Positions 3,024-25,959 of a DNA stretch of 64,000 nucleotides are shown here, piece by piece. The translations under genes and the position numbers were made by a program. Location: positions 19,974-83,973 of the forward strand of contig JAGVAE010000002.1 of the NCBI GenBank assembly GCA_020060565.1, read 5' to 3'. The stretch comes from Candidatus Woesebacteria bacterium (GTDB lineage: Bacteria > Patescibacteriota > Microgenomatia > UBA8517). Within the stretch, counting starts at the first letter, position 1. Every line of letters begins with the position of its first letter. The notes below the pieces were generated by a model that was given only the letters and a program-made list of their open reading frames with translations, did no database searches and was not told where the DNA came from.

Positions 3024-4046
3024 TTAACTCTTTAGGTCAATTCTCTCCACTTTTCCGAAGCCTTTCAAGAAATGTTCATCTGCGGTTGTTATTATTGTTT
3101 GTTGTTTTTTGGCTAATTCCATGACTATTTCCCTATGTTCATGGTCTAGTTCTGAGAAGATATCATCCAAAAGGAGTGTGGGTCTGACTTCAGTTTTTTT
3201 CTCAATGAAGTTTAACTCAGCCATCTTGAGCCAAAGTACTCCCATTCTCTGTTCACCACGACTACCATATGAGGAAAGGTTCCTCTTGCCTTCAAAAAAA
3301 ATAAAATCATCTCTGTGGGGGCCAACTAAGGTGGTTGCAGCGGAAACTTCCTCCTCTTTATACTGTTCAAGTCTTCCAACACTTATAACTGATTTATCAT
3401 AATTAAGAGAGTAACTATTTTTAAATGTTGATGGACTTGAATTTATAAACTGTATAAACTCTTCCCTTTTTTGAGAAATATAGTCTCCATTCTTTATCAA
3501 AAGTTGATTCCAAAAAAGAAGTTGGGAACGAGGTATTCCCTCTTCTCGTATTCTAAAAAGTAATCTGTTTCTTTGTCTTAAACCCTTTTCGTATGAAAGA
3601 ACGCTTCTTCTATATTCTCTGTCTATCTGGGATAGAACGGTGTCTAAGAACTTTCTTCTTATACTTGGTGCTTCTGTAACAAGATCCATGTCCCAGGGAC
3701 CAAACAATACAGTTTTAAAGTTTCCTGCAAAATCAATTGTACGTTTGGGAACCCCATTTACTGTTAGTTTTTTCTTTGGCCAACCATTATCCCCTGTTGT
3801 TATTTTTACTTCTAGTTTTATTCCATCTAATATTCCTGTAATACTAGCTATTGTTTCTTCATATTTAATCATTTCTGCTTCCAACCTTGCCTTAAAGCTT
3901 TTGGTGGTTGAAAGAAGATAAAGAGCTTCCAAAATATTGGTTTTACCTGAGGCGTTTGGTCCTACTATGGTAGTTATCCTATCTGAGAATTTTAGGTTTT
4001 TTGCTTTGAAATTCCTGAAATCTGAGAGTTTGACTACATTTATCAT
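3024..4046 (-). CDS. recF: DNA replication and repair protein RecF
   Basis: N-terminal MINVVKLSDFRNF...IVGPNASGKTNILEALYLL (Walker A). ABC/SMC-like signature and D-loop near the C-terminus (LLLDDIFSELD). Confidence 0.9.
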   Translation of the reverse strand: MINVVKLSDFRNFKAKNLKFSDRITTIVGPNASGKTNILEALYLLSTTKSFKARLEAEMIKYEETIASITGILDGIKLEVKITTGDNGWPKKKLTVNGVPKRTIDFAGNFKTVLFGPWDMDLVTEAPSIRRKFLDTVLSQIDREYRRSVLSYEKGLRQRNRLLFRIREEGIPRSQLLFWNQLLIKNGDYISQKREEFIQFINSSPSTFKNSYSLNYDKSVISVGRLEQYKEEEVSAATTLVGPHRDDFIFFEGKRNLSSYGSRGEQRMGVLWLKMAELNFIEKKTEVRPTLLLDDIFSELDHEHREIVMELAKKQQTIITTADEHFLKGFGKVERIDLKS

Positions 4047-4049
4047 ATT

Positions 4050-4838
4050 TTGAAGTATATCAGCTTTTTAAAAAGCTTATGGTATACTCGTGCCATGCCT
4101 GAAAGAAATTACGGAAATATTCAAAGCAATTTGTTTATTGATGTTGAAGGTTTCAAAAAAATGGTAAGGGAAAACCTAGAAACCTCTGAGGTAAATAAGG
4201 CTATTAAAGCCAATTGTTGGATGATTGCCCTACTTAATACTTATAGCCTGTGCTGTCATGTTCAGCATAGAGAAAACAATATTCTAAGAGTTTTTGACAA
4301 ATTGGTTAAACTGACTCAACCTGATGACCTGGATAAAAGTTCTCTAACCTTCAGAGTAAATCAGGAATTGATAAGCGATGATGCCACTGATTTAAAATTC
4401 TATGGTGGAGGAGACGACCTACTCTTTCAATGGTTAAAGGATGAAATTGGATTGGAATTAATTTATCAATCTGAACTACCAAAAGAAAATGGAGATTTTT
4501 TGACAAACGATGTTTTTCTTTTTGGCAGCCATGTCAAAGAAACCACACAAGAAGTCACCAAGACTGTTGGCCATTTGGTTCCAGTTATCTTTAACTATGG
4601 TCAGGGAGTTATCGCCTTGAGTGAGCCAACCTCCAAAGGAGGAAAAAATGAGATTCTTTTTGCAGATATTGTTAAAAACGAAGGGTTATACAAAGATAGT
4701 ACTGTAACCTATTTCGATACCAACTACCAAAAATTACTATTTAAGATTTTCCACTATGCCAATCCAAAAAATAGTAAAAGGGTCAAAAGGAAACTTTATT
4801 TAGAATTAGATGGATGCTGTCTTGCTCGTCTTTCGTGA
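4050..4838 (+). CDS. hypothetical protein
   Basis: 262-aa ORF divergent from recF. A start at M16 (4095) is possible. No recognisable motifs. Confidence 0.45.
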   Translation: MKYISFLKSLWYTRAMPERNYGNIQSNLFIDVEGFKKMVRENLETSEVNKAIKANCWMIALLNTYSLCCHVQHRENNILRVFDKLVKLTQPDDLDKSSLTFRVNQELISDDATDLKFYGGGDDLLFQWLKDEIGLELIYQSELPKENGDFLTNDVFLFGSHVKETTQEVTKTVGHLVPVIFNYGQGVIALSEPTSKGGKNEILFADIVKNEGLYKDSTVTYFDTNYQKLLFKIFHYANPKNSKRVKRKLYLELDGCCLARLS

Positions 4839-5052
4839 AGAGATTGAATAGTTTTGGCACGTATAACTTTTACTCTTTCATATACAGAGGCTAGAGGAGA
4901 TTCACCGACCTCCACACCATTAGCCAGAGAAGGATCCCCCACATCCTTACGGTGATGATAATCTGGATTTTCCGATCTGTATTGGTATTCAGATGCCATA
5001 TTTCCCCCATTCTACTACTTTATTTTTCCATAATCAAGAAATTATAGAAAGT

Positions 5053-5661
5053 CTACTTTTCCAGTTTCTTGATGTATTTATTTGAAAATTTATTAACTGC
5101 ATAATATATTCCAATTAGGATAAGCGTAAAGATGAAAAGTCCCCAAACTGTAATATCTACCGCTTTTCCGAAATTACTCACAGTTCCTCCAAAGTAATAA
5201 CCAACTGCAATTAAGATTAGAGATTTGGGGATGGTTGCTAGGAAGTTATACCACAGAAAATTCTTCATTTTGATTTTTACAGATCCTGCTGCAAAAAGAA
5301 TAAGTCCACCAAGAGCCTGGGAAAGCTTACCAAAGAAAAGTATTGTTCCATCATTTTTCTTTATGGCACTCTCAAGTTTGGCAACAAGTTTAAGGTCAAC
5401 TCTAAAAAACTTAAGTACTCCTTTATATGTTTTATTTAGCCACCAACGACCTGCTGCGTAATACAAAACATCTCCTGCCAAATCTCCAGTCATGATTGTC
5501 AAATATGTGGGAATAAAATCCATAAATCCCACAGATACTAAAAACCCTGCAATGATAGTTACAATTGGTCCTTCGATAAGTGCTAGTGGAAAAAGAATGA
5601 GGTAACTGTATGTATAAAGAAGACCAAATATCTGAGCTGTTTGATCAGCTGAAGTCAACAT
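5053..5661 (-). CDS. DedA/SNARE-associated family membrane protein
   Basis: LALIEGPIVTIIAGFL motif and 4-5 TM helices typical of DedA. Confidence 0.75.
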   Translation of the reverse strand: MLTSADQTAQIFGLLYTYSYLILFPLALIEGPIVTIIAGFLVSVGFMDFIPTYLTIMTGDLAGDVLYYAAGRWWLNKTYKGVLKFFRVDLKLVAKLESAIKKNDGTILFFGKLSQALGGLILFAAGSVKIKMKNFLWYNFLATIPKSLILIAVGYYFGGTVSNFGKAVDITVWGLFIFTLILIGIYYAVNKFSNKYIKKLEK

Positions 5662-5673
5662 GGATAGATAATA

Positions 5674-6534
5674 TCATTTTTGGCAGACTGGGCACCAGTA
5701 AGTTCCACGTCCGCCCAAGAAGTATTTTTCGATTCTGACACCTGCCTGCCGGCAGGCAGGTCTTTCGCAAGGTTCTCCATCATGTCCATATGCTAGAGTA
5801 TGGTTTTGATATTCTCCTTCTTTTCCATCTGGGGTAACAAAGGCAAGTTCTGAGGCTCCTCCATATTTTAGACCTGCTTTAAGAACCGTAATGATTGCTT
5901 TATATAGTTCTTCAACTGTTTTTTCTTCTAAGCTATTCGCTTTTCGTTTCGGATCGATACTCGAAAGCCAAAGTGCGTCGTTTGCATAAATGTTCCCCAC
6001 TCCCCCTATTTTTGTTTGATCCATTAGTACAACTTTTACAGCTCGAGAACTTTTTGAAAAAATATTTTGAAGTTCTTCTAAGGAAATTTCCAATGCATCC
6101 TTTCCAAGTTTGCTTATAAATCTTTCATCATTTACCTCTTGCCTTTTAACTATCTTTATCCAACCAAAACGTCTTACATCGTTGTAATAAAGAACACCAC
6201 CGCGGTCTAAATCAAAAATTACTAAGGTGTGGGGGCCTGGTACTCCACCAATAACTTTAGATGATAGCGAATAGTTATTAGTAGTTAGATTGGGACCTTG
6301 ATAAATATACTGCCCAGTGAGCTTGACGTGAGTAATTAGCGAGTAGCCATTAGAAAAATCTATTACAGACACCTTTCCAAAACGCCTTACGTCTTTAATT
6401 TTACCTCCAATAATATTTTTTGTGTCCCCGCTTAATATCTTTTCACTAAATATCTTTATATCTTTTATCACATGTCCAGTAAGGAATTTCTTTAATTGAA
6501 GCCTCATTGTCTCAACCTCTGGTAGTTCAGGCAT
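5674..6534 (-). CDS. mutM: formamidopyrimidine-DNA glycosylase (Fpg/MutM)
   Basis: N-terminal MPELPEVETMRL (catalytic Pro2, Glu3), H2TH region and C-terminal zinc finger CPVCQK. Confidence 0.9.
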   Translation of the reverse strand: MPELPEVETMRLQLKKFLTGHVIKDIKIFSEKILSGDTKNIIGGKIKDVRRFGKVSVIDFSNGYSLITHVKLTGQYIYQGPNLTTNNYSLSSKVIGGVPGPHTLVIFDLDRGGVLYYNDVRRFGWIKIVKRQEVNDERFISKLGKDALEISLEELQNIFSKSSRAVKVVLMDQTKIGGVGNIYANDALWLSSIDPKRKANSLEEKTVEELYKAIITVLKAGLKYGGASELAFVTPDGKEGEYQNHTLAYGHDGEPCERPACRQAGVRIEKYFLGGRGTYWCPVCQK

Positions 6535-6547
6535 AGAGATATTATAT

Positions 6548-6615
6548 TACAATCTCATTGTTCCTGCCCCTCGAAGCCTTGGCGAAGTGGGGTCTACCTC
6601 AGGAAGTTCTGGCAT
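6548..6615 (-). other. 22-codon mini-ORF (MPELPEVDPTSPRLRGAGTMRL) duplicating the fpg 5' end, containing the 27-nt repeat
   Basis: Minus-strand atgccagaacttcctgaggtagac + cccacttcgccaaggcttcgaggg + gcaggaacaatgagattgtaa. It matches the true fpg start (atgcctgaactaccagaggttgagacaatgagg) and lies 13 nt upstream of it. Confidence 0.4.
6568..6594. repeat. 27-nt exact repeat copy 1 (ccctcgaagccttggcgaagtggggtc), intergenic upstream of fpg
   Basis: Identical 27-mer is found at 38841..38867 inside the transketolase C-subunit coding sequence. Flanks are partially similar (TCAGGA..TC..G). Confidence 0.7.
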
Positions 6616-6617
6616 AT

Positions 6618-8567
6618 TTAATTATCACTTCTCAAGTCACTAGAATCAAATATTATTCCTTGTTTATATTCAGTGCTTTTAGGAAATTTCTTCCCTACCT
6701 CTGGTTGAACAAATATTACTTTAGGTTCTTTGTAGTCCTGCGGATGGTAAAAACGTGCTTTATCTCCATTACTTACAATACCCAATATCTTTCCAGTTTC
6801 AATATCTTTGAATGGTTCGGGTAGAATATTTACAACATGGAAACAGGGATCGTTATACATCTCACTAATAAAATGTGGGCACCTCAGTGTTGAATCGTAT
6901 CTTGCACATGTTACAAGACCAACTTTATCGGCAGTAAGCATATGAAATTTTTCGTTAATAAGTGTCCCACCGCCAAAGTCCATATCAACAATAAAAACTG
7001 CCCCTGGATACAATTTATTAAAGTGCTCAGCTTTAGCATAAAAATCATCAAGATCTCTATACCTTTTATTTCCAATTTTATAACCCAATAGATTAACAAC
7101 TGGACCTTCAACCTGTCCAATTGAAAAATTGTTTGTTTCGGCTGTAAAATCGACCAACACAAGCTTTTCATCGATCTGATTTATTTCTGGCACAACACTT
7201 GATGATTTAAGTTTAAGTTTCGGACGAATCTGGACAATATATAGGTTTTCTCCGCCAGCTAAAGCTTCGACATTAAACTCTCCATTATAATCTGGGTATT
7301 TTTTTGACAACCTTCTTGCAATACGCGCAATTTTAACCATTTCCTTTATTGGCATCTTTGTCAATTGCTTGGGATAAAAGACATCTTCAACAATATCCTT
7401 TCTGCTAATTATCTTATTATTTGTATCTATTATTGCTTTACGTCCCACAAAGTCACTTGATCTAAATAATTGTCTATTAACATATTCCACACTTACTTCC
7501 CCATGGTTATAGAAAACTCTACATACGAATTTATAATCTTTGGGGATTTCCTGAACAATCACAGCTAATGCTCTTGAAGTTTTCCCTATCAAATTACGAT
7601 TTCTTAGATAGAATTCAGCATAGGAAGACCAGGGGCTTAAATACACATGTCTAAGAGCTTTATAGGCATCTTCGGTTGTATGTATATAATCATAACTCTC
7701 GAAAACCCCACCAAATTGATATTCATCACCATCTTCAAGAGGAAAACTAGACCTAAATATAAGATCTTTATTTAAGATACACCCATGTTTTGCCCCTGCA
7801 AATTCAACAACCTTTTTACAAATTAGGGGTTTAAATATGCTTTCATAAAAATTCAGTGAATCGAAAAGTTTTTCAATAGCGTGTGGAATAGCACGAGATG
7901 AAAGATCAAATGTTGCAATGTTTAAACCATTCTGCCTCATAATATCCTCAGGAGAATCGAAGCTAGACATAATTTCTTCTGCCTTACCCTCAAAACCAAA
8001 TGCATTCATTTTTTTATAAAAATTTGTGGGTATTACGAAAAAATCAGGTACTTTAAAACCCACATTTTCATATTTTTTTAGTCTAACTTGCCCAAATGCC
8101 TTTCCCCCAATCTCTTCTACCGTAGCCTTTTCCATACCCCTCTCGGTAGGCATTGTAAGATTCTTCATTCCCCACGGTGAAAAAATCATTTTTGCTTTTT
8201 CCGAAAAGAAATTGCTCACTAAAAAAACTGAGTGCTGCATTAAACCATTACGTTTGTTTTTTCTATTTGACCTGTCATAACATGGAGATTCTTCAAGAAC
8301 TAGCGTGGCGAGTCTTTCTCCAGTAGTATCTTTTACCTTAGCAATTGTCATTGGTCCCAAATCCCAATTTTCATAATTGTGGCAATATAAAATGTTCTTT
8401 CTGGGTATTAATCTTTCTTTTTGTATTATATCTCCATCGTAATAGCCACCAGAAAGAGCGGTATGGGGATTCTTTTCGTTTAAATAAACACTGGCGAAGT
8501 CTTTGATTCTTTTTCTTTGTACAATCCCAGGTAATAAATCTTGATGCCAAGTTGGTCTTTCTGCCAT
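6618..8567 (-). CDS. PPDK_N (PEP/pyruvate-binding, ATP-grasp-like) domain protein, large hypothetical
   Basis: EEIGGKAFGQVRLKKYENVGFKVPDFFVIPT resembles the GGKxxxL...G.PVP.GF.IT signature of PEP synthase/PPDK N-terminal domains. The C-terminal roughly 300 aa has no recognised family. Confidence 0.55.
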   Translation of the reverse strand: MAERPTWHQDLLPGIVQRKRIKDFASVYLNEKNPHTALSGGYYDGDIIQKERLIPRKNILYCHNYENWDLGPMTIAKVKDTTGERLATLVLEESPCYDRSNRKNKRNGLMQHSVFLVSNFFSEKAKMIFSPWGMKNLTMPTERGMEKATVEEIGGKAFGQVRLKKYENVGFKVPDFFVIPTNFYKKMNAFGFEGKAEEIMSSFDSPEDIMRQNGLNIATFDLSSRAIPHAIEKLFDSLNFYESIFKPLICKKVVEFAGAKHGCILNKDLIFRSSFPLEDGDEYQFGGVFESYDYIHTTEDAYKALRHVYLSPWSSYAEFYLRNRNLIGKTSRALAVIVQEIPKDYKFVCRVFYNHGEVSVEYVNRQLFRSSDFVGRKAIIDTNNKIISRKDIVEDVFYPKQLTKMPIKEMVKIARIARRLSKKYPDYNGEFNVEALAGGENLYIVQIRPKLKLKSSSVVPEINQIDEKLVLVDFTAETNNFSIGQVEGPVVNLLGYKIGNKRYRDLDDFYAKAEHFNKLYPGAVFIVDMDFGGGTLINEKFHMLTADKVGLVTCARYDSTLRCPHFISEMYNDPCFHVVNILPEPFKDIETGKILGIVSNGDKARFYHPQDYKEPKVIFVQPEVGKKFPKSTEYKQGIIFDSSDLRSDN

Positions 8568-8601
8568 ATTTATTTTTGGCAGTGGACAATTTTACTACAA
8601 T

Positions 8602-9711
8602 CTACGAATGTTTGTTGACAAATTCTAGAATCTCTTTTTTAAATCTTTCTTTTGAAAATTTTTTGGCTTGGGTTATGCAATCTTCTGGACTAAATTTCAT
8701 TTTTTCAAACTTTTTAATTGCTTCCGATAGACTTTCTACTGTTGGTTCGTTGAAAAATACTCCTGTTTTGTTTTCGGTAACCGACTCAAGATATCCCCCT
8801 CCCCTAAAAGCTATCACAGGCGTTCCTGATAACATTGACTCAACTGGAGTCATTCCAAAATCTTCATCTGTTGAAAGAACTAAAAAAGCCTTCGCTGTCG
8901 CGTAAAGTCTTGCAACTTCGGTGTCAGTAACATGACCCAAGAATTCTATATTGTTTTTTGATAGTTTTTGCAGTTTTTTATACTCCATATAATACCCAGC
9001 TGGGCTTCCTGCAACTTTTAATTTTATGCCTAGCTTGATTGCAGTTTTGATAGCTAAATCAATTCCTTTTCCGCCAACAATACGGCTAATTATTAAGTAA
9101 TAGTCCTCTTTTTGTACTCTTCCAATTTCTGGTATTTCAACTGGTGGATATATTACCGTAGAGTCCCTGTGGTATATATCTTTAATTCTTCCCGCAACAT
9201 TCTTTGAGTTTGATATAAAATAGTTTACTTTTTGAGCCATTGTAAAATCATACTTCCTCATAAAGAAACCAACGATCTTTGCATATAGTCTGACTATCCA
9301 ATATTTTTGGAACTCTATTGAGGTTTTATATCCGTAAAGCCACCTTGGTGGTGTATGACAATAACAAATTTCAACTGGCCTCTTCTTATCAGTTCCGCGG
9401 GTTCCAAATCCCTTGGTAACATACCAACTTGCGGATGAAATCACTAAGTCATATTCTGAAAAATCAAAACTACCCCAGATAAAAGGTGCTAAAAATCTTA
9501 GAGGGCTATGCAAGTATTTTGAAAAGAAGGGAATTTTATGTGCCCAGGAGGTAATTATTTTTTTATTTTTGAATCTTTCATACGCCTGAGATTTTTCTCT
9601 ATAAAAAGCAGTGTAGATTGGGGCATCGGGATAAATTTCAGATAACGCCAATAGAACCCTTTCTGCTCCCCCAAACTCATTTAGATAATCATGTACCAGT
9701 GCTATTTTCAT
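8602..9711 (-). CDS. glycosyltransferase family 4 (GT1 fold)
   Basis: MKIALVHDYLNEFGGAERVLLAL N-terminus and C-terminal EDFGMTPVESMLSGTPVIA (EX7E-like) motif. Confidence 0.85.
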   Translation of the reverse strand: MKIALVHDYLNEFGGAERVLLALSEIYPDAPIYTAFYREKSQAYERFKNKKIITSWAHKIPFFSKYLHSPLRFLAPFIWGSFDFSEYDLVISSASWYVTKGFGTRGTDKKRPVEICYCHTPPRWLYGYKTSIEFQKYWIVRLYAKIVGFFMRKYDFTMAQKVNYFISNSKNVAGRIKDIYHRDSTVIYPPVEIPEIGRVQKEDYYLIISRIVGGKGIDLAIKTAIKLGIKLKVAGSPAGYYMEYKKLQKLSKNNIEFLGHVTDTEVARLYATAKAFLVLSTDEDFGMTPVESMLSGTPVIAFRGGGYLESVTENKTGVFFNEPTVESLSEAIKKFEKMKFSPEDCITQAKKFSKERFKKEILEFVNKHS

Positions 9712-9716
9712 TTTTT

Positions 9717-10613
9717 TTAAAACAAAGCTCCTTGTTTTTCTTTTTCTATATCCTCCCCCACTTTTTTAATTCTAGCAGTTAAGGTTTTAAAACCAAATTC
9801 TTCGAATAGCTTAATTACTGCTGGAGAATCTAATTTCCAATCTTTCATAGCTTCAAAATCAATATCGATAGGTACATTTCTAACAATAGTTGCCAACATA
9901 TATGATTGGTCTGCTGATTTTTTTCCTTTTATTAGTTTTTCTCTGAGTTTTTCTGGTATTTCATCCAAATTCTTATAAATTCCCTTTATTGTCTTATATC
10001 TGGATAGGAGTGTGATTGCTGTTTTTGGTCCAATGCCGACTATTCCAAAATAATTGTCTGAGGGGTCTCCTGTAAGTGATTTAAGGTCAACTATCTGGGT
10101 TGGGGGCACCCCCATGCGCCCAACCGTCTCTGCTTCGCTGTAGAGCTTGGCGTTGATAAGACCAGCAATGGGCATATATAGTTTTATATTCTTTTTATCA
10201 TCTATCAGTTGCAATTGATCCCTATCCCCCGTTACTATCACAACATCATTTTTTGCCTCGGTTGCGATTGTTCCTATTACATCATCCGCCTCGAAACCAG
10301 GTTTTGAATAAACAGGAATATTGGCAGCAGTTAGGAAATCACGGGCTTTGGCAAACTGAGAACTAAGATCACTGGCCATTGGTGGGCGCTGTGCTTGATA
10401 AGTTGGAAGTTCAATTTGACGGAATGTTTTTTCCTTTTCATCAAAGCAAACGGTAATATGAGTAGGTTTAAGGTCTGTTATGACACGAATTAGCATAGAG
10501 ACAAGGCCGTAAACTGCATTTATAGGTTCCCCACTTTTTGTAGTTAAAGGGGGAAGGGCATGGAAAGCACGGTGCAAAATTGCATTCCCGTCGATGATTA
10601 CAAGTTTCCCCAT
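9717..10613 (-). CDS. 5'-3' exonuclease (stand-alone Pol I N-terminal/FEN-like domain)
   Basis: MGKLVIIDGNAILHRAFHALPPL...GFEADDVIGT...VTGDRDQLQL, the characteristic 5' nuclease carboxylate motifs. Confidence 0.85.
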   Translation of the reverse strand: MGKLVIIDGNAILHRAFHALPPLTTKSGEPINAVYGLVSMLIRVITDLKPTHITVCFDEKEKTFRQIELPTYQAQRPPMASDLSSQFAKARDFLTAANIPVYSKPGFEADDVIGTIATEAKNDVVIVTGDRDQLQLIDDKKNIKLYMPIAGLINAKLYSEAETVGRMGVPPTQIVDLKSLTGDPSDNYFGIVGIGPKTAITLLSRYKTIKGIYKNLDEIPEKLREKLIKGKKSADQSYMLATIVRNVPIDIDFEAMKDWKLDSPAVIKLFEEFGFKTLTARIKKVGEDIEKEKQGALF

Positions 10614-10634
10614 ATGAAGCTATTTTAACAGAAT

Positions 10635-13600
10635 TTAGAGTTTGCCGTTTCCAGCTTTATTGCCTACTATCTTTTCAAAGTCATCTCTATCCAGGGTTTC
10701 TTTTTCCATTAAGGCGGCAGAAACTTTATCTAGAAGACTTCTTTTTGTTTTAACAATCTTTACAGCTTCTTTATAACAGGAATCCAAGATTTTTTTAACT
10801 TCATCGTCTACTTTTTCCATAAATGCTTGTGAGTTTTTGGCTCCTTCAAACCATTCCATTTGCCCAAAGTCCCCCATTCCCATATCGTCCCCCAGGTTAA
10901 CAGGACCCAGGCTGCTCATTCCGAATTCAACCACCATTGCTTTTGCTATTTTAGTGGCTTGTGATATGTCATTGGCTGCACCACTAGTCATTTCATTGAA
11001 TACGACATCTTCTGCGGCGCGCCCACCAAACATGGCTGTAATTTGTTCTAAAAGTCTACTTTTTGTTTCATGAGTTCTATCTGCTGCAGGTGGAATTAGT
11101 GTATGTCCCAAACTCATCCCACGGGCAACAATTGAAATTCTATGGACCGGATCCGTTTTATCCAGGAAATGCGTAACAATTCCATGTCCCGCTTCATGAT
11201 AAGCTGTTATTTTTTTATCATTCTCTGATTGTAATCTTTTCTTCGCGGGACCTAATTTTACCTTTGTAGCTGATTCTTCAATATCGCTCATTGTGATTTC
11301 CTTCTTATCATTTCTGGCGGCTCCAATTGCAGCCTCATTAAGCATATTTTCAAGATCTGCACCTGAAAATCCTACAGTACGATCTGCAACTCTTCCCCAA
11401 TCAATTTTCTTACCAAATTTCTTTCCTTGGGCATGAATAAGAAGGATTGCAAGGCGCCCTTCTTTATCCGGCATATCAAGCATCACTCGTCTATCAAACC
11501 TACCAGGTCTTAAAAGTGCTGGATCCAGTAGATCTCCTCTATTTGTGGCTGCGAGAACCACTACATTATCATTTGGAGTAAAACCATCCATTTCAACTAG
11601 TATCTGGTTTAGGGTTTGTTCACGCTCGTCATGTCCTCCCATCATGCCACGCCCACGAGATCTTCCTATGGCGTCAATTTCATCAATGAAGATTATTGAT
11701 GGAGCTTGAGCCTTTGCTTGGCCAAAAAGATCACGTACGCGGCTTGCTCCAACCCCAACTAGCATTTCCATAAATTCAGATCCTGCCATTGAGAAGAAAG
11801 GTACCCCTGCCTCCCCCGCTACCGCTTTTGCAAGAAGCGTGTTATGGGAAATAAACCCATTAGCGATAAAGGAATGTGTAACAGGAACTGTAAAGTCGTA
11901 AACTCTAGCACTTGATTTTTCAGTCTTTTTAACACGGTCAAAAAATATTCCCGAGCCGACTAAAAGTTTCAAAAATCTAAAATCCTCATTAATACTAATT
12001 TCCGAATCACATTTACTACAAGCCTCAAGAAAAAGTTTTACACTTGCCATGGATGGTTTTCTTCCCCCTTGGGCATATCTGCAAATCTGTTTATGAAAGC
12101 TCTCATCAATGTACTTTGATGGTTTTTTGCCACTCTCTACAAGATGCCTCCAAACCCTTTTTATTCTCGCCCCTTGGCCAGGAACCAGATCAACATTGGT
12201 TCTAAGCTTGATCTTAGCTAAATAGGAATCTAGTTTATCTTGTTTCCTTTTCAGTCTGAAACCGATTTGTTGAGCGAAACTTAACAGATTCACCCCCGAC
12301 ACAAGTAATCTATATGAGGAGACATATTGATTATTCCCTTTAACTAAAAATTTATGCATCACTCCTAAATTAAGAAGCAACGCACTTACTTGTTTTGCCA
12401 ATTTTTTACTGCTTGTGGCGTATTCAACTTTGCCACTTTTATACACAGAACCATCCGTGTCAAAAAGACCTTGCAAGAAAGCAACTACATTTTCTTTGGA
12501 AGACATCATTATTTGATCAGGAACTTTTTTATTTCTGGAATAATTTTCTTCTAAACCATAGTTAATTAGTGCAGATTTAATGCTCGAAGAACTTATAAAA
12601 TGATCGTACTTACCCGTCGCTTTTTTAACTTTATAGCCAAATTTTTCTTTAAAATAACCATTAAAAGATAAAAGTAGTTCTTTATCGGCGGTTGAAAAGC
12701 TTATTCTGTCTTTTGTGGTAAGCCCACCGTCACCCGTAATCAGTCCCATTAAATAACTTGTCTTTGTATCCAAAACTTTATAATTTCCAAACATTTGGTT
12801 TCCAGTTTTTAGAGGAATCCAATCTCCTTCACTGATTGCGTCCATCCTTTTAAACTTAAGTTTTCCCCTTTCTTCTACTACAAGCGGGTGCTCCAAAGTT
12901 CCTTCTATCTCATGTCCCATTTCTGTTCTAATTTTTACAGTGTCCGATACTCCCAAGTCATACCAATGCGAGGCGACGGCTTTCAGAGAAACAGGCCCCT
13001 CTGGATCAAAAGAAGATAAAATTGCCCCGTGAACATAACCATTTTCTTCAACAGCAAAATATTTTGGAACATCTTTTATCTCCATTAAACCTTTACTTGT
13101 TGAGATAAGAGTATCGCCAGTTACACATTTTCCCACACCCGCCGGACCAACAAGAAGGGCACCTTTAGGTGTTCTTGCTCCCATTTTTCTGTATTTTGCT
13201 GGGAATTTAAGAAAATCTACAAGCTCTTCCAATTCTTTTTTGGCTTCATCTACTCCTGCCACATCTTTGAAAGTTGTATCTTGTTTGCCTTTTGCAAAAA
13301 TTTTGGCACGACTTCTACCAAACGAGAATATGTCCTGTGCTCCTCTATTTTGGGCACGCATGATGTAATAGAAAAGTCCTGCCATGAGAATTAGGGGTAA
13401 AATTATACCCGCAGCCTCTCCTAAACTTTTTGTTAGGGATTGGTCTGCAATTGAAAACTTAACCGTTGAAGGATCTATGCCTGAATCTTTCAAGATCTGG
13501 CTAAAACCCTCCATGTTTTCCTTCGTTGAAAATTTGGTTGTTCCATCTTTATAGGTAACTACCAGTTTGTTGCTCTCAATCAAAATTTTCTCAACTTTAT

Positions 13601-13811
13601 CTTCTTTAACGTCGTTAAGAAGCTGAGAAATATCCACACTGTTACTGCTCCCCGCCATCTGAACTCCTGCAATGATTATTGGAACAATGAAGAATACTGC
13701 TAAAATGGTGAGGGCTATTGTCCAAAGATTTAATTTCAGCTTAAATTGGATCTGTTTTTTCTCTTGACCAACCTGAGGTATTTTTTTCTCGATTTTCTTT
13801 TTCTGCTCCAT
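10635..13811 (-). CDS. ftsH: ATP-dependent zinc metalloprotease FtsH precursor, interrupted by an intein
   Basis: TM region + AAA module. Walker A reads [10 protein letters not shown]|C...HN|[16 protein letters not shown]. Walker [15 protein letters not shown], and zinc-protease HEAGH motif in the C-terminal half. Excising the intein leaves a roughly 629-aa FtsH. Confidence 0.9.
11841..13127 (-). mobile_element. intein (roughly 429 aa) in the FtsH P-loop with LAGLIDADG homing-endonuclease domain
   Basis: Starts with Cys directly after GVGK and ends ...FISHN followed by Thr (+1). Two dodecapeptide motifs ([12 protein letters not shown] and [11 protein letters not shown]). The C-terminal junction was read directly (N657 at 11841-11843). 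The N-terminal junction is within about 1 nt of 13127. Confidence 0.85.
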
Positions 13812-13920: not shown

Positions 13921-14289
13921 TTACCGTACTTTTGTTCCATTGGGAACTTCACTCTGAAGCTGAAATAAAACAGGTGAGGTTTCTTCTGCCTCACTTTCAG
14001 AAAGATCGTCTCCCGGGGAGGCCATAATCATCATTACTTCTGATAATTCTTTCTCGGGGCCTATTGTTTTGGGAACAAGGTTAATAACAAATGGGAATTG
14101 TTTACCAATAAGATCTTTGGGTTTGTAAAATTTCATGATCCCAGAGAAGGCTTTTTTGATACCTATCTCCTCCCCCAAATCTACCTCAAGCTTCATAACC
14201 CAATGGCTCCAGGTAGGAACCTCAGCCTTAATAACTGTCCCAATTCTTATATCTATTTTTGAAAATTCATCAAACGATATTTGATCCAT
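13921..14289 (-). CDS. tRNA-binding domain protein (CsaA/Trbp111-like)
   Basis: MDQISFDEFSKIDIRIGTVIKAEV... matches the OB-fold tRNA-binding domain (IDLRVGKI-type). The longer ORF up to 14445 has an implausible hydrophobic N-terminal extension. Confidence 0.65.
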   Translation of the reverse strand: MDQISFDEFSKIDIRIGTVIKAEVPTWSHWVMKLEVDLGEEIGIKKAFSGIMKFYKPKDLIGKQFPFVINLVPKTIGPEKELSEVMMIMASPGDDLSESEAEETSPVLFQLQSEVPNGTKVR

Positions 14290-14328
14290 AGATTTGATTT
14301 CTACAAAAAACATTATACAATAGCCACT

Positions 14329-14625
14329 ATGAAACAGGAAAATGGAAATACACCTAAAATAGAAGTTGTTCGTGTGGATAGATGCGCACACTATCAGGTG
14401 GAAATAAATAAAAAAAGATTTGTAATATTGGGAATGGGAAAGCACCTATCTGTTACCAAAATTGGTGAAGGTTGTGTTGGTACTAAAAGTGTCAACCTTC
14501 GTGATGACAAAGGTTTAACTCTCTATGGAGATAATGGCAACAAGACTGTTTACATGCCAGTTCCTCAGGAAAATATAGACTGGAAAGAGGTAGAAGTGAT
14601 TGATCCCAAAAGCTTTAAGCTATAA
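14329..14625 (+). CDS. hypothetical small protein
   Basis: 98 aa from MKQENGNT. Lies between two minus-strand genes and overlaps the trpS stop by 11 nt. Uncertain. Confidence 0.3.
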   Translation: MKQENGNTPKIEVVRVDRCAHYQVEINKKRFVILGMGKHLSVTKIGEGCVGTKSVNLRDDKGLTLYGDNGNKTVYMPVPQENIDWKEVEVIDPKSFKL

Positions 14626-15631: not shown

Positions 15632-15666
15632 AAAATCTGCTTGGAGGCAGATTTAACTTTGTCTTG

Positions 15667-15740
15667 TGTCAGGGGAGGGACTTGAACCCTCGACCTCAGC
15701 GTTATGATTGCTGTGCTCTAACCAACTGAGCTACCCTGAC
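15667..15740 (-). tRNA. tRNA-Met(CAT) (elongator type; tRNA-Ile2/lysidine cannot be excluded)
   Basis: Cloverleaf: acceptor GTCAGGG/CCCTGAC (G1-C72), D-arm GCTC-AGTTGGTTA-GAGC, anticodon loop AUCAUAA, T-arm GAGGG-TTCAAGT-CCCTC, A73. CCA not encoded. Confidence 0.8.
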
Positions 15741-15819: not shown

Positions 15820-15922
15820 AATCGTTTGTGTTGCGGGGTCAGGAGTTGCGCCTGATCTGAAAGATTATGAGCCTTTCGTGCACTGTACACTACCCCGCAT
15901 ATAACTAACAGGTTTGATTATA
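15790..15922 (-). ncRNA. candidate small RNA (roughly 120 nt) with own -10 box and terminator
   Basis: -10 TATAAT (complement of 15917-15922) preceded by GG. Transcribed region has a closing stem GCGGGGU/ACCCCGC around three sub-hairpins (GUGCAC palindrome, GAAAG-9nt-CUUUC, CAGG-7nt-CCUG) and ends at the terminator. No long ORF on this strand. Confidence 0.35.
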
Positions 15923-18793: not shown

Positions 18794-18896
18794 TATTTTT
18801 GCTATTCTATACTTGCAAAGTAATTATTGTCAAATTTGACCAAACCCTCCATCAATCCCAAAGTTATACACTTTGAAAATATTTTTCAACGTTTTG

Positions 18897-18967
18897 TGGG
18901 CTCGGAAGGAGTCGGACCTTCGCGATTACTTTATAAGAGTAACGTCCTACCGTTGAACGACGAGCCC
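18897..18967 (-). tRNA. tRNA-like gene with anticodon TAT (putative tRNA-Ile(UAU))
   Basis: Minus strand folds as acceptor GGGCTCG/CGAGCCC + A73, D-arm GTTC-AACGGTA-GGAC, anticodon arm TTACT-CTTATAA-AGTAA (U33, anticodon UAU, A37), 4-nt variable loop, T-arm GAAGG-TCCGACT-CCTTC. Position 55 is C, not the usual U. Confidence 0.5.
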
Positions 18968-19910: not shown

Positions 19911-22238
19911 TCACAGGTTGCTTCTTCGGGCAATCTCTGCTTCAACCAATCTTTCGTCCCGTCCATATTTGAGTCTGCTCATTTCTTTTATAATCTCCGC
20001 CACGCGCTCATTCTCCATAGCTTTTTGTTTAGCCATATCTTTGTTCATATCCATTGAAAATGGTGGAACAGGTTCGTTATTTACAATGGTTTTACAATAT
20101 GCGTGATATCTCTCAACATTTAATAAGTCGTCCTCACCAAACGTTGGTGCAAATTCATGTTGCAGGTAGTTAGCATCAGTCACACCAACCCTAAATGAAA
20201 TCACAGATCCCACATTTCCAAAAACTGCATTTTTAACTTCTTCTTCAACTTGACCTATAAACTGGTTGGCAACAGTTAGTCCCAGACCGTATTTTCTAGC
20301 TTCCGATAGAATTACTGCAAAATCGGGAGTGGCAAAGTTTTGAAACTCATCAACATAGAAATAAAAGTCCCGCCTGTCTTCTTTTGAAAGAGTGGCTCTA
20401 CTCATGGCGGCCATAAGGATTCTGGGAACAAGTAAAAGTCCCAAAAAGTTACTGTTCTCCTCCCCTAGTGTACCCTTGGCAAGGTTAATAAGAAGAATTT
20501 TTCCTTCATCCATAACTTTTCTAAAATCAAATGAGCTTTGGGATTGACCTATGATGTTTCTTATAAGTTTATTGGTAACAAAGCGGCCGAATTTAGAAAC
20601 CGTGTAATCCAAAACTTCTGATTTATGAAAGTCACTGGTTTGTGCTATCTGGTCCGTCCAATAACGTCTGATAATTGGATCGTTTACCAAAGGCAAGAGT
20701 TCTTGAACATACCGAGAATCCGTCATTGCCCGCATAAGTTCAACAAATGTATTTCCGGGTTTGGCCATTACGGTCAACATAGCATTTCTAACACCGTGCT
20801 CAAATCTGGGTCCCACAATTCCTGTTTTATAAGGATCAAAAAGCTTATACATAAGATTGATTATTGAAGTTGCCGCAAAATGCTTTTCATCTTCAGTTCT
20901 TGCCTCAAGTAGGTTCATTCCAATGGGACGTTCAACATCGCTTGGATTAAAGTAAATTACATCCTCGGCTCTCTCAGGTGGAATTAGTTTTAAGATGTCC
21001 TCAACAGCATCTCCGTGGGGGTCCATGAAGCAAACCCCTTTGCCCGCATTTATATCTTGTAAAACTAAGTCTTTCAAAAGTTCCGATTTACCCACACCAG
21101 TTTTTCCTATGATGTAAATATGCTGCATTCTGTCTTTATCACTTAAATACACGGAGCGCTTTACTCCCTGATAACTACTCATTCCCAAATAGAGTCCTTC
21201 TGTAGGAATCTGAGCGGGAGCTGGAGCTGTTTTTGCATTTAACCAATAAATATGGGGGGTTGTAACTTGTTTATTTGGGAAATGAAAAATAGTTGCCAAC
21301 TCTTCACTGTTTAGAATTGAGGGGTGATTACCAAAAACATTGAACATAGGTTGATATCTATATAAAAAGTCCTCCATAAATCCACCTTTTGAATAAATCT
21401 TTCTTCCCTTAAGACTATTTAAATCCCCAGCATATTGAGAGAAGGCACTACTTATATTGGTTATGTGACTTTTAGCTAGATTTTCATCGGTTGAGATTGC
21501 AACAATCCTAATTGATGTTTCAAATCCTGGCTTTGAGATTTTTCCTTCAATTGCTTCCAATGTTTTTGCGGGAGTTGAGAATTTGGCTTTCTCGGGATCA
21601 CTCTCTTGTTTTTTGGTATCACTAATATATTTACCCCCCTCTTTTTGCCAAGTAGACTCAGCAGGAGAGATTAATATTTGAATTGCCGCAGCCTCCCCTG
21701 GTCCCATTTTAGCTAAAGCCGCAGAAATACCCGTCATGGGATCTGTTGCCAAATCTTTAAAAGTCTTAATTGGATAGAAATTGTTTTTTCCCAGCTGGAA
21801 TGATTTATAGGCAACTTTACCTTCTGGAGTAAAAATATTATATTCATCAACTTCTAAAATTTCTGCATCTGGGTAGCTTCCATGAACTGTTTTTTCTACA
21901 AGATCCTTTATTTTCTTTGGTGCCCAGACGTAAAATCTTATATCTTCTTGTTTGGCCACTATTTCAAAAGACACTACTGGTTGAATATCAAATTTTTGTT
22001 TCCAACCACCCTTCTTAAGAGAATGGAGACCTGAAAAGAGTTGGTCCATAACATCAATCTTAAATTCATTGTTCCTGGGTACCGCAATCTGAAGAAGAAC
22101 TGAATCAATTGAAACCTCTTCTCTTTTCCTATTCTTAAAGAAAATTAATATCACATAACCTAGTGCAACCAATCCAAAAAAAAGTGCGGCAATTACAATA
22201 GCTGCAAAAAATATACCTGTAAAATCAATATTTAACAT
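19911..22238 (-). CDS. TraG/TraD/VirD4-like coupling-protein family ATPase (FtsK/HerA superfamily) with N-terminal TM helix
   Basis: N-terminal hydrophobic anchor, Walker A IIGKTGVGKS, Walker B FYFYVDEFQNF, 775 aa. Confidence 0.7.
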   Translation of the reverse strand: MLNIDFTGIFFAAIVIAALFFGLVALGYVILIFFKNRKREEVSIDSVLLQIAVPRNNEFKIDVMDQLFSGLHSLKKGGWKQKFDIQPVVSFEIVAKQEDIRFYVWAPKKIKDLVEKTVHGSYPDAEILEVDEYNIFTPEGKVAYKSFQLGKNNFYPIKTFKDLATDPMTGISAALAKMGPGEAAAIQILISPAESTWQKEGGKYISDTKKQESDPEKAKFSTPAKTLEAIEGKISKPGFETSIRIVAISTDENLAKSHITNISSAFSQYAGDLNSLKGRKIYSKGGFMEDFLYRYQPMFNVFGNHPSILNSEELATIFHFPNKQVTTPHIYWLNAKTAPAPAQIPTEGLYLGMSSYQGVKRSVYLSDKDRMQHIYIIGKTGVGKSELLKDLVLQDINAGKGVCFMDPHGDAVEDILKLIPPERAEDVIYFNPSDVERPIGMNLLEARTEDEKHFAATSIINLMYKLFDPYKTGIVGPRFEHGVRNAMLTVMAKPGNTFVELMRAMTDSRYVQELLPLVNDPIIRRYWTDQIAQTSDFHKSEVLDYTVSKFGRFVTNKLIRNIIGQSQSSFDFRKVMDEGKILLINLAKGTLGEENSNFLGLLLVPRILMAAMSRATLSKEDRRDFYFYVDEFQNFATPDFAVILSEARKYGLGLTVANQFIGQVEEEVKNAVFGNVGSVISFRVGVTDANYLQHEFAPTFGEDDLLNVERYHAYCKTIVNNEPVPPFSMDMNKDMAKQKAMENERVAEIIKEMSRLKYGRDERLVEAEIARRSNL

Positions 22239-23176: not shown

Positions 23177-23461
23177 TTACTCTACTTTTGTAAATCTATC
23201 AACTTCAGATCCGTCTTCAAGTTTAACTTTTGCAAGAAAATCTTCTAAAGATCTTACCCAAACTAATTTTTCTCCATAATGAGCTTCATAAATCACACAA
23301 ACTTTCTCTGTTTCTTCAATAAAGCCAACACGAAGAACTGTATAAAACTGATCAGAATGTTTGTAATGAATATAACTTCCACCTATTTTTACTTCTTGTT
23401 TTGCTTTGTCTATTTCCGCTATTAATTCTGTCTGTTCTTTACGTATCATTTTCTTTAGCAC
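23177..23461 (-). CDS. DUF1653-like small protein
   Basis: YIHYKHSDQFYTVLRVGFIEETEKVCVIYEAHYGEKLVWVRSLEDF resembles the DUF1653 core (Y[KR]HYKGG.Y...VvYr.lYG..WvRPlemF). Confidence 0.5.
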   Translation of the reverse strand: MLKKMIRKEQTELIAEIDKAKQEVKIGGSYIHYKHSDQFYTVLRVGFIEETEKVCVIYEAHYGEKLVWVRSLEDFLAKVKLEDGSEVDRFTKVE

Positions 23462-25959
23462 TCAGAGTGGCCGCAGGCGTGGCATTTGGAGCAGCCTTCC
23501 TCAAAAACCATGGCGGGAGATCCACAGCTGGGACAGATATCTCCTATTTTGTTATCTTGCGGGATATTTAATGCCATCTGCTGCACCTCTGGCTCAAGCG
23601 GTGTATCGTGATTAATATTATTAAATCCAAAGTGCATTCCAATAGCTTTTGCAATAGCATCAGGTAGGGACCTAACTTTATTTATTCCAAATCCTACAGA
23701 TCTACTACCTCCAATTCCTTGAAGTTGTTCCATAATTTCCCTGGCTCTTTCTCTTGCTGGCAGATGATTTCCAAATCTGAAATTAGTTGAGACTAAACGC
23801 CCCAACGCTTCCGCCATGGCTGCAACTTCACTTCCTGCTTTTCCTATGGTTACAAATAATTCAAAGGGTTCTCCCGTTTCTGTCTCATTAATGGTAATGA
23901 ATGAACTTCCCAGTGGAGTTAATATTCTATAAGTTGACCCACTGACTTTAACGGGGCGCTCCATTATTACTGATTTTTGTGTGTCTTCTTGTTTACTTTC
24001 TTTTTCGGTTTTATTGTTTGTTCCAATATTTAAGACTTGTTCGTTTTTACTTCCATCTCTAAAAATTGTTATTCCCTTACAGTTTGACTCCCAAGCAGAA
24101 AGATATGCATTTTTTACGTCATCTACCGTTGAATCATGACTAAGATTTATGGTTTTACTGACTGCATTTTCTGTGTATTTTTGAAAGGCAGACTGAATTT
24201 TGATATGCCATTCAGGTGCAATTTCATGAGCAGTACCAAAAACGGCACGTACATCAGCAGGAATCTCTTCCATTCCCCGTATTACTCCACGTTCTCCCAC
24301 TTTTGTCATTAAAGATTCATTCCAAAAGCCCTTTTCTTTGGCAATTTTTTCAAATCTAGGTTCTACAAAGGTTAATTTTCTATCTAGGTGTTTATCTTTA
24401 ACAATGTGTTGATATGCAACCGCAAACATGGGCTCCACCCCACTAGAAGCTCCTGCAATAATTGAAATTGATCCAGTTGGTGCAATTGTTGTGACTGTCG
24501 AGTTCCTTCTTGGAGGACCTTCTCTATAAATACTTACAGGGAAAAGTGGAAAAGGACCACGTTCTTTTGCCAGTTTTCTATCTTCATCTAATGCTTCATC
24601 TGAAATAAACTTCATTACTTTTTCGGCCAAAACTATTGCTTCTTCACTATCAAATGGAATTCCCAGCTCAATCAACATGTCACTCCATCCCCCCACTCCA
24701 AGACCAATACGGCGTGCATTAAATACCGTTTTTCTTAACTGCTCCAGGGGAAGTGGATTAACTTCGATGACATCATCCAAAAATCTTGTCGCGGTTCTGG
24801 CAACTTGGGCTAGTTCATCCCAATTGATTTTCCCGTCTTTCACAAAATAACCAAGGAAAATACTTCCCAAATTACAGGCATCGAATGGATATAGAGGTTG
24901 TTCACCACACGGATTAGTTGACTCAACTGGACCCAATACTGGGATTGGGTTTCCGCTTCCAGCATTAATTCTATCAATAAAAATTAAGCCTGGGTCCCCT
25001 GACCTCCAAGCTGCATTAGCAATCTCGTCAAAGACCTTTCTGGCATTTAGAGCTCCTACAACTTTCTTTGTTCTGGGATCAATAAGACTATAATCTTCAT
25101 CTTTTTTATACGCTTCCATAAAAGGATCTGTGATTGCCACTGATATATTGAAGTTAGTTATTCCCCCTTCTTCTTTACAATGAATAAACTCCATAACATC
25201 AGGATGGTCTACTCGGAGTATTCCCATGTTGGCCCCTCTTCTTTTTCCTCCCTGTTTAACTTCATTTGTTGCTGCATCAAATATTCTCATAAACGATATT
25301 GGGCCACTTGCGGTCCCACTTGATGTTTTAACTATCGAACCGTTAGGGCGAAGTCTACTAAAAGAAAATCCAGTTCCCCCACCAGTTTTATGAATTATTG
25401 CCTGGTATTTAAGTGCATCAAAAATCCCTTCCATAGAATCTTCAACAGGGAGAACAAAACAGGCTGAATATTGAAGACCATTACCTGTTCCTGCATTCAT
25501 TAGAGTTGGTGAGTTTGGTAAAAACTTTCTTGAGATCATAAGGTTATAGAAGTTGTGGGCCATTTTTTCTACTCCTTTTTTGGTTGCCCCCCAAACCGCC
25601 TCAGCAGATGCTATCTCCCAAGAAATTCTCCAAACCATTTGTTCTGCAGTTTCAATTGGTTTGAGTTCATCATTCTTCATCAAGTAGCGCTCATTTAAAA
25701 CTTTAAGAGCTTGCTCGGTCCACTCCCCTTTGGGTAAACCTTTTGGCATGGCTGGCATACTACCTATCTTTTTTCTAATTTTTCCTGTCACTTCTTCATA
25801 AGATGGAGCAGAGAGGTCGTTTATTGTTATTTTTGTTTCCCCATTTTTGTATACAAACTTATTCCCTCCGGGCCGTAGGCCCTTTGGGCCGGAGGCTTTT
25901 CTTTTATCTTTTGTTTGTAATTGCATATTTTTTAAGTTACTTCTCAATAAGTTTTTCAA
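23455..25959 (-). CDS. nrdJ: ribonucleoside-triphosphate/diphosphate reductase, adenosylcobalamin-dependent (class II, NrdJ)
   Basis: Active-site motifs YSACFVLPVEDS and TNPCGEQPLYPFDACNLGSI. C-terminal zinc ribbon CPSCGSP...CSKCHACGHSEC. NrdJ-like N-terminus EQALKVLNERYLMKNDE begins near M67/M70. The first 66 codons overlap nrdR and the GC-rich element and may not be translated. Confidence 0.9.
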   Translation of the reverse strand: MKNLLRSNLKNMQLQTKDKRKASGPKGLRPGGNKFVYKNGETKITINDLSAPSYEEVTGKIRKKIGSMPAMPKGLPKGEWTEQALKVLNERYLMKNDELKPIETAEQMVWRISWEIASAEAVWGATKKGVEKMAHNFYNLMISRKFLPNSPTLMNAGTGNGLQYSACFVLPVEDSMEGIFDALKYQAIIHKTGGGTGFSFSRLRPNGSIVKTSSGTASGPISFMRIFDAATNEVKQGGKRRGANMGILRVDHPDVMEFIHCKEEGGITNFNISVAITDPFMEAYKKDEDYSLIDPRTKKVVGALNARKVFDEIANAAWRSGDPGLIFIDRINAGSGNPIPVLGPVESTNPCGEQPLYPFDACNLGSIFLGYFVKDGKINWDELAQVARTATRFLDDVIEVNPLPLEQLRKTVFNARRIGLGVGGWSDMLIELGIPFDSEEAIVLAEKVMKFISDEALDEDRKLAKERGPFPLFPVSIYREGPPRRNSTVTTIAPTGSISIIAGASSGVEPMFAVAYQHIVKDKHLDRKLTFVEPRFEKIAKEKGFWNESLMTKVGERGVIRGMEEIPADVRAVFGTAHEIAPEWHIKIQSAFQKYTENAVSKTINLSHDSTVDDVKNAYLSAWESNCKGITIFRDGSKNEQVLNIGTNNKTEKESKQEDTQKSVIMERPVKVSGSTYRILTPLGSSFITINETETGEPFELFVTIGKAGSEVAAMAEALGRLVSTNFRFGNHLPARERAREIMEQLQGIGGSRSVGFGINKVRSLPDAIAKAIGMHFGFNNINHDTPLEPEVQQMALNIPQDNKIGDICPSCGSPAMVFEEGCSKCHACGHSEC
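25864..25896. repeat. GC-rich alternative-hairpin element, copy A (CCCTCCGGGCC-gta-GGCCC-ttt-GGGCC-GGAGG)
   Basis: About 62% GC element in a 33% GC genome. Lies between the nrdR stop and the probable nrdJ start. A second copy is at 45809..45843 with identical stems and different loops. Confidence 0.6.

Follow-up and report, generated by a model that had tools for sequence, protein, structure and literature searches.

The 64-kb window analyzed here, a stretch of 64,000 nucleotides from contig JAGVAE010000002.1 of a Candidatus Woesebacteria genome, encodes an FtsH protease whose open reading frame (ORF) is interrupted by 429 additional amino acids (aa). With high confidence, this insert is a canonical class 1 intein that carries a nested, probably active two-motif LAGLIDADG endonuclease and lies in frame between the Lys and Thr of the FtsH Walker A motif. 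Judged from its sequence and from those of its relatives, it appears to be a mobile, selfish intein of the "classic P-loop" type. Its anatomy, predicted fold, residue conservation, presence/absence polymorphism, sporadic distribution, and spread across P-loop sites are the observations from which we infer splicing, endonuclease activity, and homing.

The FtsH precursor and its intein

The precursor gene occupies positions 10635-13811 on the minus strand, on which all segments of the precursor described below are also given. The ORF list agrees with the initial annotation that the gene encodes 1058 aa, compared with the usual length of about 630. Its identity as FtsH is supported by TIGR01241 (FtsH_fam), whose score of 696 bits exceeds the cut-off of 600 even with the insert present, and by the Pfam domains FtsH_ext, AAA, AAA_lid_3, and Peptidase_M41 on the 1058-aa precursor. 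The ORF also reads a HEAGH zinc motif and a Walker B motif, IIFIDEID. The features that define FtsH membership are all present, namely an N-terminal membrane/periplasmic region, an AAA+ module with Walker A, Walker B, and SRH, and an M41 domain with HEXXH.

The intein comprises precursor residues 229-657 (11841-13127; 1287 bp). The N-extein (aa 1-228; 13128-13811) ends with GPAGVGK, the initial portion of Walker A, and the C-extein (aa 658-1058; 10635-11840) holds the remainder of the AAA module together with the lid and the M41 protease. In the indexed translation, the junctions lie exactly where the initial annotation had put them, with GPAGVGK|C...SHN|T falling between Lys228 and the Walker A Thr (the bar marks the boundary between host and intein). 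In their immediate context, the junctions read VGPAGVGK|CVTGDT... on the N side and ...NGFISHN|TLLAKAVA on the C side. The first C-extein residue, the +1 nucleophile Thr (11838-11840), is the same residue as the Walker A Thr. Removal of the insert in silico leaves a 629-aa FtsH, whose AAA and protease part aligns to Thermus thermophilus FtsH (PDB 2dhr; E = 4e-137) with no gap through Walker A.

The insert contains the features of a class 1 intein, including Cys1, a block B Thr-x-x-His, blocks F and G, a His-Asn end, and a +1 Thr. The N-terminal splicing (Hint) region (intein aa 1-110; 12798-13127) begins with the block A Cys1 (precursor Cys229; 13125-13127). It also contains block B, TLEH (Thr77 and His80; 12888-12899), which belongs to an EGTxEHP pattern kept in all FtsH alleles aligned. 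The C-terminal splicing region (intein aa 393-429; 11841-11951) carries block F (11868-11903), with Asp411 and His418, and block G, ...FISHN, whose His428-Asn429 pair is encoded at 11841-11846. Between the two splicing regions lie the LAGLIDADG homing-endonuclease core (intein aa 111-300; 12228-12797) and a helical accessory domain (intein aa 301-392; 11952-12227). The two LAGLIDADG motifs reported previously map to 12720-12752, with catalytic Asp133, and to 12444-12476, with catalytic Asp225. The helical accessory domain, whose helices span residues 293-391 in the structural model, is probably an extra DNA-binding domain, by analogy with PI-PfuI and the Thermococcus litoralis VMA intein (TliVMA).

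Family models recognize both the splicing and the endonuclease parts of the insert, with four matches that exceed their curated cut-offs and lie well outside chance. Pfam Intein_splicing matches with E = 8e-14, and LAGLIDADG_3 matches in two stretches (E = 1.6e-24). The NCBIfam models intein_Nterm (TIGR01445; E = 1.8e-10) and intein_Cterm (TIGR01443; E = 3.1e-07) cover intein residues 1-84 and 409-429, respectively. The insert also matches the intein parts of many "intein-containing" NCBIfam models, including those for DnaB, GyrA, ribonucleotide reductase (RNR), RFC, and IF-2. Its closest sequence relatives in the PDB are PI-PfuI (1dq3; 8.4e-10), followed by the Thermococcus VMA intein.

An AlphaFold2 model of the intein, built on a 29-sequence alignment (A1), has a mean predicted local distance difference test (pLDDT) score of 93.2 and a predicted template modeling (pTM) score of 0.92. 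The model predicts a Hint fold, with an N-terminal part (aa 1-110) that is beta-rich (pLDDT 87-98) and a C-terminal hairpin (aa 393-429). A pseudo-dimeric alpha/beta core (about 111-300) and a helical segment (about 301-392) lie between them. Within the core, the secondary structure of residues 121-290 follows the alpha-beta-beta-alpha-beta-beta-alpha order of a LAGLIDADG pseudo-dimer. In a Foldseek search of the PDB, endonuclease-bearing inteins rank first, namely TliVMA (7qss; E = 2e-25, TM 0.72), PI-PfuI (1dq3), PI-PkoII (2cw7), and PI-SceI. The free-standing LAGLIDADG enzymes I-DmoI and I-Tsp061I come next (TM 0.65-0.75, normalized to target length), and mini-inteins such as NpuDnaB and Ssp DnaB follow. 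PI-PfuI, from Pyrococcus furiosus RNR, and TliVMA share with the FtsH intein the arrangement of Hint, two-motif LAGLIDADG, and helical domains (TM 0.67-0.72, E = 2e-25 to 3e-24). However, their sequence identity to it is 22-23%, and they are archaeal, thermophilic inteins with other host genes and target sites. The predicted fold, the family models, the conservation of residues across alleles, and the precise empty site described below bear out the initial reading of the insert as a class 1 intein with a LAGLIDADG homing endonuclease, placed between the Lys and Thr of Walker A. Hint blocks A, B, F, and G are present.

Read against the established intein pathway, these features suggest the following route. 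The 1058-aa precursor would be translated with a split P-loop, and Cys1 would undergo an N-S acyl shift at Lys228-Cys229. The hydroxyl of the +1 Thr would attack the thioester, and cyclization of Asn429, aided by His428 and by Asp411 and His418 of block F, would release the intein. An O-N shift would then remake the peptide bond, and the resulting 629-aa FtsH would contain GPAGVGKT without interruption. In the precursor, 429 residues separate the Lys from the Thr of GxxxxGKT, so that it could not form the P-loop and active FtsH would require splicing; the precursor is thus expected to lack ATPase activity. The freed 429-aa intein would act as a site-specific endonuclease, cutting intein-free ftsH at a target of about 20-40 bp that spans the insertion point, and recombinational repair would copy the intein into the cut allele (homing). 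The intein would persist in so important a gene since splicing leaves no trace and any imprecise deletion would destroy the P-loop. Dependence on splicing and the impossibility of imprecise deletion are the accepted explanation of intein persistence at such sites and are not themselves evidence of regulation.

Distribution, empty site, and mobility

The presence/absence polymorphism is seen most directly in a close relative. The nearest FtsH in the protein database (P0053) is a 615-aa protein with 93% extein identity, encoded on a contig (L012) that shares the gene order of the window: TrpRS, tRNA-binding protein, FtsH, 5'-3' exonuclease, and GT4 glycosyltransferase. BLASTN aligns L012 positions 6026-6642 to window positions 13744-13128, in the N-extein, with 86% nucleotide identity. 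Positions 6646-8913 align to window positions 11837-9563, through the C-extein, with 84% identity. L012 lacks exactly the 1287 bp of window positions 11841-13127, with no other indel and only synonymous changes at the site. The intein-free ftsH site around the insertion point reads GTTGGTCCNGCGGGNGTGGGAAAA|ACNCTTCTTGCAAAAGC, and the empty-site sequence of L012 reads GTTGGTCCCGCGGGCGTGGGAAAA|ACTCTTCTTGCAAAAGCTGTCGCG. At 572-668 aa, every one of the best 120 FtsH clusters listed is, judged by length, intein-free; their extein identity is 77-93%. The nearest intein-bearing FtsH, from Woesebacteria GW2011_GWF1_31_35 (L001), has an extein identity of only 68%.

Synteny between the window and L012 breaks elsewhere, between window positions of about 4046-8608 and L012 positions 9895-11949, which have no BLASTN match to each other. 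At this place, L012 carries a Fapy-DNA glycosylase and a GH63-like gene, and the window carries a 649-aa ORF with a PPDK_N domain (6618-8567) along with others. This is a small gene-content difference between close relatives.

A search for the same-site intein in related genomes, proposed in the initial annotation, recovered it in both GTDB and metagenome loci. The GTDB scan, which covers one genome per species, found 11 loci with the FtsH intein lineage. In all 10 loci whose N-junction is on the contig, the intein follows the G-x-G-K of FtsH, and the truncated eleventh (L005) shows the matching HN|T FtsH junction on its C-terminal side. Carriers comprise Woesebacteria, Beckwithbacteria, Saccharibacteria, and other Patescibacteria, three Pyrinomonadaceae/Blastocatellaceae (Acidobacteria), and a few metagenome-assembled genomes (MAGs) labeled Gammaproteobacteria or Pseudomonadales that are possibly mis-binned. 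JGI metagenomes contribute nine loci, with the N-junction at the identical site in all six where it is visible and an HN|T FtsH junction in the three that are truncated. In total, the identical FtsH site is occupied in at least 16 other loci with a visible junction. One of the alleles resides in a complete Woesebacteria genome (CP011214.1). The exact precursor protein of the window is not on record, according to an exact-protein look-up.

More distant relatives extend the lineage beyond FtsH. Inteins with 25-36% identity occupy the position between Lys and Ser or Thr in the Walker A motifs of MutS-related proteins (GK|ST), PhoH (GTGK|TY), ABC ATPases (GCGK|ST), and DnaB-like proteins. A few others occupy different sites, namely in RNR, in RadA, and at a second AAA position. 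At least 301 viral relatives, with 25-34% identity, are present in IMG/VR. Among 80 of these loci (L023-L102), the 36 that can be aligned from intein residue 1 follow G-K, mostly in terminase-like RGYGK|C...HN|TF contexts. This clade of P-loop inteins may have its main reservoir in phages.

One Pyrinomonadaceae locus (L009; OZ243957.1) carries a second, unrelated intein besides the P-loop one. Its FtsH stop-to-stop ORF is 1553 aa long, and the second intein (448 aa; aa 700-1147) lies at GVGA|SVTGDT...ILLHN|SRVRDLF, with Ser1 and a +1 Ser. It matches Pfam Intein_splicing (1.7e-12) and LAGLIDADG_3 (1.3e-08), with a weak HTH_3 match. An intein in a CDC48-like protein (P0032; ...HN|SEKKIRQIFE) appears to occupy the same AAA position.

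Comparison of inteins with their exteins suggests that the FtsH intein has moved horizontally instead of being inherited vertically. The window intein is 73% identical to that of L001, whereas the exteins are 68% identical. The corresponding values are 68% and 62% for L003 and 69% and 56% for L010. The same holds across phyla, as the inteins of an acidobacterial (L007) and a saccharibacterial (L011) locus are 56% identical and their exteins 48%. Intein identity that exceeds extein identity is the opposite of what vertical descent of a fast-evolving parasite in a slow-evolving host protein would produce. In a more speculative reading, the FtsH P-loop inteins would record recent cross-phylum traffic between the Candidate Phyla Radiation (CPR) and Acidobacteria, in either direction, seeded from the large P-loop intein pool of phage terminases.

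Several observations show no trace of a recent arrival of the window intein. A binned comparison of extein DNA, whose bins far from the junction are disturbed by indels in distant alleles, detected no co-conversion tract at the junction. Up to the junction, the extein DNA resembles the intein-free relative (83-90%) and not the sampled intein-bearing alleles. Composition carries no signature of import, as the GC content at third codon positions (GC3) of the intein is 0.289 and that of 15 host genes is 0.282 +/- 0.019. Overall GC is lower in the intein (0.36) than in the AAA core (0.42-0.45), a difference that reflects amino-acid composition, since GC3 equals that of the host. With no co-conversion tract and a host-like GC3, the intein is not detectably a recent import, and gain is inseparable from precise loss. 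Ancestral presence followed by precise loss in relatives is equally possible as gain. A search of the window proteins found no second FtsH or AAA paralogue within the 64 kb that it covered.

Endonuclease state and possible regulation

The catalytic residues of both splicing and DNA cleavage are conserved. Cys1, Thr77, His80, Asp133, Asp225, Asp411, His418, His428, and Asn429 are kept in all nine FtsH alleles compared, which have diverged to 38-45% identity, and all FtsH alleles have the HN|T junction. The catalytic residues are also invariant or nearly so across the wider 29-sequence family alignment. Between intein alleles, the nonsynonymous distance (dN) is 0.2-0.3, and the synonymous distance (dS; NG86) has reached saturation in almost every comparison. 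The analysis is therefore limited to dN and to a bound on omega, which lies below about 0.25 where it could be computed. In most pairs, the endonuclease region has the lowest dN among the long intein segments (0.14-0.29). Low dN in this region together with saturated dS indicates that purifying selection acts on the endonuclease domain.

These data bear on a possible but rather unlikely alternative, in which the intein still splices and its endonuclease is no longer active. Such an element would be late in its homing cycle and would be retained only because the P-loop does not tolerate its imprecise deletion. The lack of a co-conversion tract and the fully ameliorated composition are in line with this, as is motif 2 of the L008 allele, which reads TDA in place of TDG. 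Many LAGLIDADG inteins are described as having inactive endonucleases (PMC8966425). However, both motifs and both catalytic Asp residues are intact here and across the nine alleles, and the endonuclease domain combines low dN with saturated dS. The very patchy occurrence of the intein among close relatives, with inteins more alike than exteins, further argues for continuing mobility.

Co-option of the intein as a conditional switch, whereby an inactive FtsH precursor would become active only under certain redox, metal, or temperature conditions, is improbable. Were this so, the intein would gate (for example, by redox or metal acting on Cys1) what is possibly the only FtsH quality-control protease of a regulator-poor CPR bacterium with a tiny genome, and unspliced subunits might poison FtsH hexamers. 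There are precedents among P-loop inteins, as described for Pyrococcus RadA (PMC4513877; PMC5790916) and mycobacterial DnaB (PMC6195587; PMC7360933). The split P-loop would guarantee a precursor without ATPase activity, and the intein contains three cysteines (349, 370, and 373) besides the catalytic Cys1. However, these additional cysteines are not kept in more distant FtsH alleles. The absence of the intein from the best 120 relatives listed implies that FtsH regulation in this lineage does not require it, and a selfish element would be expected to retain an intact endonuclease. The post-translational control point suggested in the initial annotation has no support here, and the evidence as a whole is that of an ordinary selfish element.

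It is extremely improbable that the insert is an artefact of assembly or binning or a domain that does not splice, whether a bacterial intein-like (BIL) domain or an ordinary insertion in FtsH. The source is evidently a metagenome-type CPR genome, and the exact protein has no second record. However, the insert keeps the reading frame exactly, all intein blocks are present, and independent assemblies from different studies share its codon boundary. BIL domains have no nested endonuclease, usually lack a +1 nucleophile or a canonical HN|S/T/C junction in a conserved host motif, and usually reside in variable, non-conserved host proteins. The nested endonuclease, the highly conserved host site, and the canonical HN|T junction rule out a BIL domain.

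Genomic context and place among known inteins

The FtsH intein is the sole intein of the 64-kb window, in which phmmer and regular-expression searches of six-frame ORFs found no further intein or LAGLIDADG ORF. RNRs are among the commonest intein hosts; the RNR gene of the window (23455-25959, minus strand; 834 aa, with a TSCPD domain) is intein-free.

Other features of the window concern translation and DNA transfer. A tRNA-Ile gene with the anticodon TAT (UAU) lies at 18896-18967 on the minus strand, near two tRNA-Met(CAT) genes (15666-15740 and 15830-15899). In most bacteria, AUA is read by a CAT tRNA carrying lysidine, a modification introduced by TilS, so that the UAU tRNA-Ile hints that this organism may decode AUA independently of TilS. 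A 775-aa ORF at 19911-22238 (minus strand), with TrwB/VirD4-type coupling-protein and TraG-D_C domains, is also kept in L012. A tiny, CPR-type genome here encodes an ATPase of the type IV secretion or DNA-uptake-like kind. A 114-aa plus-strand ORF (14281-14625) overlaps the 5' part of the gene for a tRNA-binding-domain protein (13921-14445, minus strand) and is likely spurious. The GTG start of the latter gene (174 aa) is probably placed too far upstream, because its Pfam match begins at residue 66 and the L012 orthologue has 122 aa.

The position between the Lys and Thr of the P-loop is the "classic" intein insertion site (PMC5050341), and the text of the largest survey reports that inteins are strongly biased toward P-loop ATPases (PMC4760082). 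The site is thus not the unusually stringent location for a selfish element that the initial annotation took it to be. Inteins named for this site in these sources include those of mycobacteriophage TerL1-a, DnaB-b, MCM-a, RFC-a, Pyrococcus RadA, PhoH, and archaeal LonB (PMC5050341; PMC4760082). LonB, another AAA+ protease, is given as a P-loop intein host in the latter source (PMC4760082). The FtsH intein resembles these elements in its insertion point (GxxxxGK|T/S), class 1 chemistry (Cys1...HN|Thr/Ser), and nested LAGLIDADG endonuclease. It differs from them in its host, a membrane AAA+ zinc protease, and in its carriers, which are mainly CPR/Patescibacteria with some Acidobacteria.

FtsH appears neither in the main text of Novikova et al. 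2016 (PMC4760082) nor in its top-15 tables of bacterial and archaeal proteins that contain inteins. No description of an FtsH intein was found in the searchable literature, although the supplementary tables of that survey or InBase may list one. Within that literature, the statement that FtsH is not a commonly reported intein host holds. Two candidate reports, on the jumbo phage MIJ3 and on a Methylococcus genome, were ruled out, as their inteins lie in genes other than ftsH.

Sequences of FtsH inteins have been in public genomes since the CPR releases of 2015 under generic names. The alleles of Woesebacteria (CP011214.1), Beckwithbacteria CG23, Daviesbacteria GW2011_GWB1, and Pyrinomonadaceae MAGs share the gene, codon boundary, and intein lineage of the window copy, with 38-75% identity. 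Unlike them, the window copy is a distinct allele whose best full-length match is 73%. Where the carrier proteins are named, they are called FtsH, AAA-ATPase, or "hypothetical protein," and not intein. The element is conventional in kind, site, and architecture, and FtsH as an intein host is not described in the searchable literature.

The finding alters no concept of intein or FtsH function. It has value for annotation, since genes labeled plain FtsH, AAA ATPase, or hypothetical contain such inteins, and their lengths of 1050-1550 aa can be mistaken for fusions. Protein-engineering panels gain a natural Cys1/+1 Thr intein with Lys at position -1. Documented intein carriage is widened to the CPR/Patescibacteria. 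FtsH, a near-universal membrane AAA+ protease, joins the P-loop ATPases invaded between Lys and Thr, and a second FtsH site, GVGA|S, is occupied in one Pyrinomonadaceae genome. The FtsH intein adds one more data point to the view of P-loop inteins as a family that moves among unrelated ATPases and phage terminases.

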